From: a plasmid
Direction: 5' to 3' (one strand)
DNA length: 64,000 nt
Sequence record: CP019900.1
Shown here one piece after another: positions 4,070 to 5,503 of the stretch (position 1 is its first letter; each line of letters opens with the position of its first letter). A program made the translations under genes and the position numbers. The notes below the pieces were generated by a model. It searched no databases. It saw only the letters and a program-made list of their open reading frames with translations, and was not told where the DNA came from.

Positions 4070-4232
4070 GTCGGCGCTTGAGGCTTTTTGCCTCATGACG
4101 TAAAGGTGGTTTGTTACCGTGTTGTGTGGCAGAAAGCAGAAAGCCCCGTAGTTAATTTTCATTAACCCACGAGGCCCACTGAATGTCTAGTCAACACCAG
4201 TATGGCCTCTTACCGTGCAATTTGCAAGGAGG
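4070..4232 (+). promoter_or_regulatory. sok: 5' part of the hok/mok mRNA leader (fold-back elements, mok start ATG at 4183) including the expected sok antisense-RNA region; severed from hok by the IS insertion
   Basis: near-identity to the recalled R1/F hok-mok leader (GCGCTTGAGGCTTT.TGCCTCATGACGT.AAGGTGGTTTGTT.CCGTGTTGTGTGGCAGAAAG...CCCCGTAGT...TTAATTTTCATTAACC...ATGTCTAGTC) up to CAAGGAGG at 4225-4232. Confidence 0.55.
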
Positions 4233-5270
4233 TGTATGGGTCCACCACATATTGCAATTTTTACTCTCACGTAAAATATAGTCCACTGGCGTCATCAGTT
4301 CGAGTGATTTATGTGGCCTTTTGCTGTTATACAGCACCAGATATTCAGCCATTCTTTGATTAAACAAATTCAGGTCCTCAAAAAGCAACAATTCATTGAA
4401 TTCAATAAATTGTTCTCTAAGTGTCCGGTTAAATCGCTCACAGGTCGCATTCATTTTCGGTGTGTACGGATAGGTCCAGATGTGTTTAATCGAGGCTTCC
4501 TGTAGCGTTTTATCAAAGTTACCGAGGAACTCCTTACCGTTGTCAGTGACAACTTGTCTGATAGCGACAGGAAAGAGCTTTGTGGCCTTGCTGAAGAAAT
4601 GGCTGGTAATATCGCTGTTGAGTGAAGGGACCGCCAGGGCCAGCGCATAGTCGCTGTGCTCGTCGATCATGGTAATGATATAGCGGCGTAGGTCCCCCAT
4701 CCTGAGTTCAATCGCGTCCATCCCTATGAGTTCGCCTGTTTTTACCGGGCGGTATTGTTTTGGTCTTCTGGGCTTCACTGAGCGTTTTTTTATCAACCGG
4801 GCTTTGCCCCTGGCGCTGAGGCGTACGGGGATCATCCGCATTTTATCGTGAGCACCAGCAATGATTCTTCCAATGGTTGACGTGCTGGGACAGGTAAAAT
4901 GCCGCGCTTCACACCATGGTTTCAGCCTGACAAAAATCTGCTCTTTGCCGAGATTGGGTAACTCAGTTCTCAGACGCCTGATCTCCTTGAGTACATCAGG
5001 ATGCCAGTGCCTTGAACGGCGAACCAGAGGGGCTTTGCTTCTTGGAATTAGTGCTTCTGGACCACCGGTGCGCAGTAACCGGCGCCACCAGTAGAGTGTT
5101 CGCGTTGATACGTCAAAAGCATCAGCTGCGGCACGGATCCCGTGCTTATCCCAGAAGTTCAGAGCCTTCATTCTTAACTTCGCAATCTCGGGCATAAGAG
5201 AGTGTTTCATCGCATAAGCAGTTGCTCGGTAATACCCAAAATAGCCGACACCGATATGCTGCATCAACAT
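4191..5270 (-). CDS. IS481-family DDE transposase (C-terminal 12-14 codons read through the IR into flanking hok leader)
   Basis: 359-aa ORF with integrase-core features typical of IS481 family transposases; stop codon lies outside the IR. Confidence 0.75.
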   Translation of the reverse strand: MLMQHIGVGYFGYYRATAYAMKHSLMPEIAKLRMKALNFWDKHGIRAAADAFDVSTRTLYWWRRLLRTGGPEALIPRSKAPLVRRSRHWHPDVLKEIRRLRTELPNLGKEQIFVRLKPWCEARHFTCPSTSTIGRIIAGAHDKMRMIPVRLSARGKARLIKKRSVKPRRPKQYRPVKTGELIGMDAIELRMGDLRRYIITMIDEHSDYALALAVPSLNSDITSHFFSKATKLFPVAIRQVVTDNGKEFLGNFDKTLQEASIKHIWTYPYTPKMNATCERFNRTLREQFIEFNELLLFEDLNLFNQRMAEYLVLYNSKRPHKSLELMTPVDYILRESKNCNMWWTHTPPCKLHGKRPYWC

Positions 5271-5328
5271 CTGGCAATCCCTCCTTTAGTGTTCTGAGGC
5301 AATTGCAATATCTGTGTGAACTTACACA
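4233..5328 (-). mobile_element. IS481-family insertion sequence (about 1.1 kb) inserted in the hok Shine-Dalgarno/mok region
   Basis: imperfect terminal IRs TGTATGGGTCCACCACATATTGCAATT (left) and rc TGTGTAAGTTCACACAGATATTGCAATT (right); flanked by GGAGG on both sides (4228-4232 and 5329-5333), a possible TSD; native hok leader resumes outside. Confidence 0.6.
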
Positions 5329-5341
5329 GGAGGAGTAAACC

Positions 5342-5503
5342 ATGAAACTACCGCGAAACGCCCTGGTCTGGTGCGTATTAATCGTGTGTTTAACGCTCTT
5401 GATATTCACATGCCTGACCCGGAACCGCTTATGCGAAGTCCGGCTAAAGGACGGGAACAGGGAGGTCGCGGCAAGCCTGGCTTACGAATCCAACGGTAAG
5501 TAG
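5342..5503 (+). CDS. hok: Hok family type I toxin (53 aa)
   Basis: [53 protein letters not shown]; close to recalled R1 Hok; GGAGG SD supplied by duplicated target. Confidence 0.8.

Follow-up and report, generated by a model that had tools for sequence, protein, structure and literature searches.

Why should an insertion sequence (IS) stand at the exact ribosome-binding site of a plasmid toxin gene, and does the killing system to which that gene belongs survive the event? Both questions are raised by a 64,000-nucleotide stretch of plasmid DNA (sequence record CP019900.1; hereafter the window, meaning this whole stretch), in which a hok/sok post-segregational killing locus is split in two. A reading made from the sequence alone had placed an IS481-family element precisely in the Shine-Dalgarno (SD) sequence of hok and in the mok reading frame, and our analysis confirmed that placement with small corrections to the coordinates. 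We interpret the locus as the result of a recent transposition of ISKpn28 into an intact hok/sok module, which has likely lost its killing function while keeping Sok, by an IS clade that prefers the upstream edge of the -35 box. We give this joint reading a probability of roughly 75%. The element and the parts of the locus on either side of it are the following.

4061-4066, plus strand: putative hok promoter -10 hexamer, TATAAT (relaxed consensus scan)
4073-4232, plus strand: hok mRNA 5' leader, with the 5' box, the Sok target region and the mok start (Rfam, predicted fold)
4122-4193, minus strand: Sok antisense RNA gene, ends approximate and predicted from the RNA fold
4183-4281, plus strand: truncated mok, a 32-aa open reading frame (ORF) of 16 native codons followed by 16 IS-derived codons
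4191-5270, minus strand: transposase ORF, 359 aa in the NCBI annotation of identical copies (Pfam, NCBIfam)
4199-4227, minus strand: intact sok promoter, with -35 box TTGCAA (4222-4227), 17-bp spacer and -10 box CATACT (4199-4204)
4228-4232, no strand assigned: left copy of the target-site duplication, GGAGG (the empty-site reconstruction matches at 100%)
4233-5328, minus strand: ISKpn28 (IS481 family), 1096 bp, 100% identical over 1095 aligned bases to annotated copies
5329-5333, plus strand: right-hand GGAGG of the duplication, regenerating the hok SD (sequence and empty-site match)
5342-5503, plus strand: intact hok toxin ORF, 53 aa (Pfam HOK_GEF, 4.8e-18; NCBIfam)
5504-5610, plus strand: hok mRNA 3' region, with a stem-loop, the fold-back box (5562-5568) and a terminator-like hairpin

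We rebuilt the empty site by deleting positions 4233-5333, which removes the IS and one copy of GGAGG. The resulting 504-bp sequence gave contiguous 100.0% matches to uninterrupted loci in CP008701.1 (Klebsiella variicola) and NZ_CP129220.1 (Klebsiella pneumoniae). This match fixes the boundaries of the IS and the 5-bp duplication, and because the rebuilt locus is identical to uninterrupted ones, it points to a clean and recent transposition. No compensating mutations were found in the flanks over the 504 bp compared with the uninterrupted alleles. In PLSDB the allele of the window occurs in its empty form only, and its best occupied match is 97.9% identical. In the event that we propose, a full-length, consensus-identical ISKpn28 would have transposed into an intact plasmid hok/sok locus and duplicated GGAGG, the SD pentamer of hok.

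The inserted DNA ends in TGT...ACA within imperfect inverted repeats (4233-4259 and 5301-5328), and its bases 4233-5327 are those that match, over the 1095 aligned positions, the copies annotated as ISKpn28 in three other loci (L001-L003). NCBI labels the identical copies "IS481-like element ISKpn28 family", and our use of the name takes these annotated copies as a proxy for the ISfinder reference. The transposase scored 234.8 bits against the NCBIfam model NF033577 transpos_IS481 (cut-off 224) but only 88.5 against the IS3 model (cut-off 160), and it is a single uninterrupted ORF with the Pfam domains rve, rve_3 and HTH_28. A single-ORF DDE (rve) transposase with an N-terminal helix-turn-helix, TG...CA ends and a short duplication are the features of the IS481 family, so the earlier family assignment was right. 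The transposase is the sole ORF, and ISKpn28 encodes no accessory targeting protein. TTGCAA is present in both inverted repeats, 19 bp from each tip.

It had also been noticed from the letters that the transposase ORF runs on past its inverted repeat into the old leader, and this is what we found: there is no stop codon inside the IS, and the final 14 codons and the stop (4191-4193) come from hok-leader DNA. The tail, PPCKLHGKRPYWC, lies with its stop at 4191-4232, antisense to mok codons 3-16. The coding sequence has identical extents in L002 and L140, and the RefSeq "ISKpn28 transposase" entries WP_004220208.1 and WP_086531834.1 (L001, L002 and L140) are 359 aa long with the same 14-residue end. 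Because the ORF is stopless within the IS and the same 359-aa product stands in NCBI, the RefSeq transposase bears a tail encoded by the hok leader. At other sites (L094 and L139) the ISKpn28 transposase has 348 aa.

Left of the IS lie the hok promoter, the leader with its 5' box, the Sok target, the mok start and a complete sok gene with its core promoter; right of it lie the SD copy, hok, the 3' fold-back box and the terminator-like hairpin. The claim that sok and the 5' elements are severed from hok thus holds. The Rfam sok model (RF01794) covers 4072-4238 over its full length with 91.8 bits, the sole Rfam match in the 64 kb. Sok is predicted to fold into a free single-stranded 5' tail, a long hairpin and a U-rich tail (-24.9 kcal/mol, z = -3.98); the Rfam match, the gene's own promoter and this hairpin with its U-tail together argue for a complete sok gene, complementary to the start of mok translation. 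TTGCAA-17-CATACT, which we take to be the sok promoter from its homology with characterised sok promoters, is intact. Its -35 box is 5 bp from ISKpn28, with the IS on the upstream side, a point that the sequence-only reading had missed. The -10 position of the putative hok promoter, just 5' of the leader start, likewise rests on homology with characterised hok/sok loci. When the uninterrupted hok mRNA was reconstructed, its predicted fold paired the 5' and 3' ends (z = -5.27), with the 5' box GGCGCTT (4073-4079) opposite the fold-back box AAGCGCC (5562-5568), and this pairing would correspond to the fold-back design known for hok mRNAs. Both boxes are retained in the window, about 1.5 kb apart. 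The terminator-like hairpin of the hok 3' region (5504-5610) was read by eye; the terminator scan did not list it.

The coding parts fared as the sequence-only reading had said. Starting at 4183, mok is cut after 16 codons and stops at 4281, and the NCBIfam Mok model (PRK13720) matches residues 1-18 of 71 only. An IS of about 1.1 kb then precedes hok, which begins at 5342 with the second GGAGG standing 8 nt before its ATG, and the toxin ORF is intact (NCBIfam NF007279, 105.2 bits, cut-off 73). What has gone is the contiguous mRNA in which mok overlaps hok: mok ends at 4281, and 1101 bp, made up of the IS and one copy of the duplication, separate the leader from the hok SD.

Translation of hok normally requires a contiguous mRNA and translational coupling to mok. 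The insertion would split the hok mRNA unit of about 400 nt, turn mok into a 32-aa dead end and leave hok behind 1.1 kb of IS without a recognisable promoter. Because hok translation depends on contiguity and on mok coupling, post-segregational killing has most likely been abolished, while Sok would still be made. A strict consensus scan for promoters and terminators across 3950-5700 found nothing directed into hok but also missed the hok and sok promoters, and because it was too stringent for these we used a relaxed scan. With both the consensus and the relaxed scans, no outward sigma-70-like promoter (at least 8 of 12 matches) directed toward hok was found in the last 230 bp of the IS. A terminator-like hairpin followed by a T-run lies inside the IS on the plus strand (4732-4752). 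When IS-hok chimeric RNAs were folded in silico, their SD and AUG were no more exposed than those of the native RNA, which is weak evidence with no clear difference between the two.

The arrangement is very common, which the sequence-only reading had not recognised. Leader, IS and hok stand together in at least 1322 PLSDB plasmid records, compared with at least 3814 PLSDB plasmids with uninterrupted loci of this hok/sok family, and an assembly chimera, which had been named as a possible refutation, does not account for the same arrangement in so many records. ISKpn28-like elements were present in about 1770 PLSDB records at 90% identity or more and in 1538 at 99% or more. When metagenome contigs were scanned for the right end of the IS, 45 of the 84 copies stood at the translation start of a hok-family gene, and at least nine different Hok proteins were encoded directly downstream of that end.

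Three backbones (IncFII/IncR leading region, IncHI5-type and IncHI1B) carry the IS with 100% identity over 1095 aligned bases, and their hok leaders are 84-93% identical to that of the window and their hok sides 95-97.5%. The duplicated pentamer and its adjoining bases follow each allele, as GGAGG, GGAGA or, in chromosomal hokA, CACTG. Empty alleles are also available: at 99.6% identity for the type found in L003 (IncHI1B) and at 100% for the L006/p628-KPC type, whose occupied form carries a 93% variant of the IS. The chromosomal HokA of K. pneumoniae (MPQKY...) is occupied at the homologous position with the duplication CACTG, and its empty glyS-hokA site is available as well. In all, four occupied alleles have empty counterparts at 99.6-100%, and the flanks around an identical IS differ by 3-16%. 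These data show repeated independent insertion at one nucleotide position across hok alleles, and the locus in the window adds a new and independent case to a very common ISKpn28::hok arrangement and is ordinary as an object.

Two further lineages, each about 75% identical to ISKpn28, came to light when the shared left end of the IS was sought in viral contigs. Both have the duplication GGAGA, stand before prophage relF/hokD-like genes (MKQQKAMLIAL...) and adjoin an Rfam sok match, which suggests that the insertion preference is common to the ISKpn28 clade. A scan of one genome per species for the right end gave 3 matches only, all without usable flanks. The idea that all relatives of the IS sit in hok was rejected, since copies in E. 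coli between yegH and galF and between iroB and iss are not beside hok and have no clean duplication.

Several plasmids had relB or unrelated sequence to the left of the IS and hok to the right (L137, which is K. variicola pBSKP1, and L056, L057, L085, L015 and L042). Their duplications are sometimes mismatched, and IS-mediated deletions or fusions appear to have replaced the hok leader.

Insertion sites outside hok/sok show what the targets have in common. All copies were oriented as in the window, and on the minus strand the flank was followed leftwards, starting at the duplication. We counted hok/sok once and set aside about half of the left flanks, which had mismatched duplications attributable to deletions or recombination between IS copies. 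A -10-like hexamer was defined as having A at its second and T at its sixth position, at least 4 of 6 matches, and a distance of 16-18 bp from the TTG. The common geometry is a duplication that adjoins the upstream edge of TTGNNN, with a -10-like hexamer about 17 bp further on. TTG stood at the fixed position beside the duplication in 13 of the 14 non-homologous sites, and a -10-like hexamer followed at 16-18 bp in 11 of 14, against a background of 4.1% (31,102 TTG sites in the same DNA; binomial P = 1.6e-13). The promoter lay on the 3' side of the transposase gene in 13 of 14. On the plus strand the duplication always follows CAA, which is explained as the complement of the TTG of the -35 box. 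The promoter-like sequences at the sites, read as -35, spacer and -10, are the following.

sok sites: TTGCAA-17-CATACT, TTGCCT-17-TATCCT and TTGATT-17-TACTCT
Klebsiella prophage-like site, two diverged alleles (duplication TGCTC or TACTC), at least 18 loci: TTGAAA-17-TAAATT
ColE1-type plasmid pKpn23412-4 (duplication GAAAG): TTGACT-18-TAATCT
Metagenome contig with RNAI (L039), reverse orientation: TTGAAG-18-TACACT, with Rfam RNAI starting exactly at the predicted start point
Uncharacterised sites, first group: TTGAAG-17-TATTCT, TTGCTT-16-TATAAT, TTGCAG-17-TATACT and TTGCAA-17-CATATT
Uncharacterised sites, second group: TTGATA-17-CATTAT, TTGTTT-18-TAAAAT, TTGCGA-18-TAAACT and GTGACA-17-TAGACT

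Three known RNA genes, RNAI, RNAII and STnc100, lie beside such sites. At the prophage site (L116, L124, L014 and about 18 viral or metagenome loci), 12 bp separate the IS end from the start of an Rfam STnc100 match, and the position immediately upstream of this small RNA is a second ISKpn28 hotspot, in Klebsiella prophage-like DNA. TTGACT-18-TAATCT is probably the promoter of the RNAII primer because the Rfam RNAI match ends where RNAII, from its predicted start, should begin. The ISKpn28 clade would thus prefer to set its 5-bp duplication against the upstream edge of a sigma-70 -35 box, mostly at promoters of small or antisense RNAs, with the 3' end of the transposase gene usually facing the targeted promoter. 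In hok/sok loci the hok SD falls at just this place, 5 bp upstream of the sok -35 box, which would make these loci the main natural landing site of ISKpn28.

Other candidate targets were tried and rejected. The SD motif GGAGG does not explain the choice, given the CACTG duplication at hokA and the unrelated pentamers at sites outside hok; in the window, GCAAGGAG occurs six times, and the IS stands at the hok copy alone. A further candidate, the long shared motif GCCTCTTAC that lies 14 bp from the cut, is found only in hok homologues and is absent from the other sites. The leader also resembles an inverted repeat of the IS (AGTATGG...TGCAAT), and this likeness is lost in other targeted alleles, such as that of L006.

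Some observations weigh against our reading. The promoter rule rests on just 14 non-homologous sites taken from assemblies, a small sample, and the roughly half of left flanks that were rearranged had to be excluded. The -10 match is poor at two sites (L093 and L087), one site with an intact duplication has TGTCAA in place of TTG (L015/L042), and the RNAI site (L039) is in the opposite orientation. The two old E. coli copies at yegH-galF and iroB-iss, about 75% identical, do not fit the -35 rule. Since the hok ORF is intact and its SD strong, some Hok could be made by weak read-through or from a promoter that escaped recognition. Under colistin selection, an ISKpn28 insertion within the mgrB ORF has also been reported (PMC6101004), so the preference of the element is not absolute.

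The recurrence at hok could have arisen in other ways. A single ancient insertion, or the spread of the IS among hok loci by homologous recombination without repeated transposition, might be suspected, given that hok/sok modules are mosaic and move between plasmids and that many PLSDB records are clonal. We consider this very improbable. The IS is 100% identical while the adjoining leaders differ by 7-16%, the duplication and its neighbouring bases track each allele, four occupied alleles have empty counterparts at near or complete identity, and even IS lineages that are only about 75% identical occupy the same position. Selection is a more serious candidate, although still an unlikely one. 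According to this explanation, insertions were random, and those that killed hok while sparing sok were favoured and spread as "adaptive disruption". Durrant et al. (bioRxiv 10.1101/527788) proposed adaptive disruption for hotspots near hok/sok homologues in the part of that work available to us, the available part of PMC5419217 describes IS150 arriving repeatedly in hok and ldr loci of evolved E. coli, and other IS types are also found in hok leaders. However, selection would accept an insertion at any place in the 160-bp hok ORF or in its promoter, whereas all clade copies with an intact duplication are at one nucleotide position across hok subfamilies, and the same -35 geometry is found at sites without a toxin gene (RNAI, RNAII, STnc100 and others). 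We infer that the target is chosen by the transposase rather than by selection, and selection may still contribute to the abundance of the arrangement. A stronger version, in which the ISKpn28 clade consists of "promoter-hunting" elements, is tentative and in our estimate falls a little short of even odds. It would have the DDE transposase alone place the duplication at about -36 to -40 of strong sigma-70 promoters, mostly those of small or antisense RNAs on plasmids and prophages, with a strong orientation bias. The candidate cues for the transposase would be DNA sequence, DNA shape or the bent promoter bound by polymerase.

The remaining alternative concerns the outcome rather than the target. 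The sequence-only reading had left two possibilities, namely inactivation of the killing system, or expression of hok from an outward promoter of the IS, which would need compensating changes. The second would amount to a rewired toxin cassette, independent of Sok and driven by such a promoter or by read-through from the hok promoter. The intact ORF and the strong SD that the duplication regenerates 8 nt 5' of the ATG are compatible with it, and IS481-family elements of Bordetella are known to drive adjacent genes, as the available parts of PMC6161684 and PMC11774165 describe. We nevertheless regard expression as improbable, and favour simple inactivation because neither an outward promoter nor compensating changes were found. 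The last 230 bp of the IS hold no sigma-70 match of 8/12 or better toward hok, the hairpin and T-run lie on the plus strand within the IS, and the flanks still match empty alleles at 100%. In the chimeric RNAs the SD and AUG are predicted to be largely paired, and stability of the arrangement in at least 1322 plasmids is hard to square with unregulated synthesis of a toxin.

Disrupted hok loci have precedents. Pedersen and Gerdes are said to have found in 1999 that chromosomal hok loci of E. coli K-12 are inactivated by IS150 or IS186, and we saw the K-12 hokA locus with IS150 in sequence (L138). As in those loci, which are regarded as inactive, the IS in the window is near but outside an intact hok ORF and severs it from leader, mok and sok. 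In K-12 hokA, however, an element of another family, IS150, stands in the leader after ...ATCAAAGTT and not at the SD, and the K-12 loci differ further from the present one, which has a plasmid host, a recent insertion and an intact sok promoter.

Other elements were also observed close to hok. IS150 (L138, K-12) and the IS3-family element ISKpn8 (L094, K. pneumoniae) occupy the same place in the hokA leader, after ...ATCAAAGT, which is distinct from the ISKpn28 site. ISKpn8 and an ISKpn28-type IS are adjacent upstream of hok in L094 and L143, the latter with a 94.5% variant. In seven metagenome loci (L017, L021, L025, L027, L033, L049 and L091), a second element stands at the hok start codon, between ...GGAGAAAAAGGCTAT and TGTTAACGCC..., directly after the right end of ISKpn28; the one in L091 codes for a 446-aa transposase of the ISNCY family, IS1202-like (NCBIfam NF033594, 462 bits). 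More than one IS family is therefore attracted to the stretch of roughly 15 bp that separates the sok promoter from the hok ATG.

Target-selective elements are well established, among them Tn7 (attTn7), the "res hunters" Tn5053/Tn402, and IS1397 and ISKpn1, which target repetitive extragenic palindromic (REP) sequences; Ty3 at RNA polymerase III start sites is a conceptual parallel. Like Tn7, Tn5053 and IS1397, ISKpn28 takes a defined position relative to conserved functional DNA, with an orientation bias and sites on mobile replicons. Unlike them, it would recognise the edge of a sigma-70 -35 box and not a res site, a REP hairpin or the glmS terminator. IS481 of Bordetella is the prototype of the family and has the target NCTAGN. 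ISKpn28 resembles it in its single-ORF DDE transposase, N-terminal helix-turn-helix, TGT...ACA termini and short duplication, but CTAG is in none of the ISKpn28 duplications (GGAGG, GGAGA, CACTG, TGCTC, GCGTG, GTACG and GAAAG).

Repeated IS insertion beside hok/sok has been described before. In their available parts, Durrant et al. (bioRxiv 10.1101/527788) report hok/sok homologues as mobile-element insertion hotspots in E. coli and K. pneumoniae, and both that work and PMC5419217 read such insertions, as seen here, as disruption of toxin-antitoxin systems. They treat the hotspots at the level of genes and favour selection, and the same parts contain no ISKpn28, no exact nucleotide and no -35 geometry. 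The accessible text of PMC6339943 describes "insertion of ISKpn28 upstream of hokG" in IncHI5 plasmids, with backbones either occupied or empty, and so concerns the same IS at the same kind of site as in the window; that text is descriptive and has nothing on target preference, SD duplication or killing function. Our search of the literature on ISKpn28 or IS481 with hok and on promoter-directed targeting returned descriptive mentions only, although the rule may already stand in ISfinder or TnCentral. The SD duplication, the nucleotide-exact site, the adjacency to the sok -35 box and the promoter sites outside hok are stated in none of these sources, as far as their available text goes, and the -35-adjacent targeting rule may be unreported.

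The split locus is part of an F-type plasmid from the Klebsiella group and lies in its leading region. A ParB-like gene (340-2340) and psiA (2813-3544) precede the IS-split hok/sok, and an N6-methylase gene and a truncated traD-traI-traX segment follow. The backbone is about 93% identical to known plasmids, and the window contains one hok homologue and one copy of the IS. Further on, an ORF for an IS5/IS903-type DDE transposase (12846-13814) is followed by an N-terminally truncated TraD (13974-15536), whose profile match begins at position 80, and then by TraI and TraX. The genes for the F-type pilus and mating-pair formation appear to have been deleted, and the plasmid is therefore probably not self-transmissible. 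Near the end of the window (63040-63544) is a G+C-rich tandem repeat with a 37-bp unit (TGGGAATCGGCCCACCTTGCCGGGCGCCGCTGCCGTG; 13.6 copies, 89% matches), overlapped by long ORFs on both strands.

For the reading of plasmids, these results mean that a "Hok family toxin" gene beside ISKpn28 should not count as a working addiction module. The annotation issue touches at least 1322 sequenced plasmids, compared with at least 3814 in which a locus of this family is uninterrupted; it matters for predicting how stable plasmids are and for curing strategies that rely on toxin-antitoxin systems. If ISKpn28 prefers a sequence that most F-like, IncHI and virulence plasmids of Klebsiella carry, its spread on plasmids would be explained; from there the element can move to genes of the chromosome, among them mgrB, which is linked to colistin resistance (PMC6101004). 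What the analysis may add is evidence of an IS clade that homes on the upstream edge of small-RNA sigma-70 promoters. Were the clade indeed promoter-hunting, its transposase would recognise promoter architecture or the complex of RNA polymerase with the promoter, in a bacterial counterpart of polymerase-directed integration such as that of Ty3, and this would explain why about a quarter of this hok/sok family in sequenced plasmids is knocked out. If the -35-adjacent rule is true, ISKpn28 would offer a natural tool for placing DNA at promoters and a simple, single-protein system for learning how a DDE transposase reads a promoter or its bound RNA polymerase.

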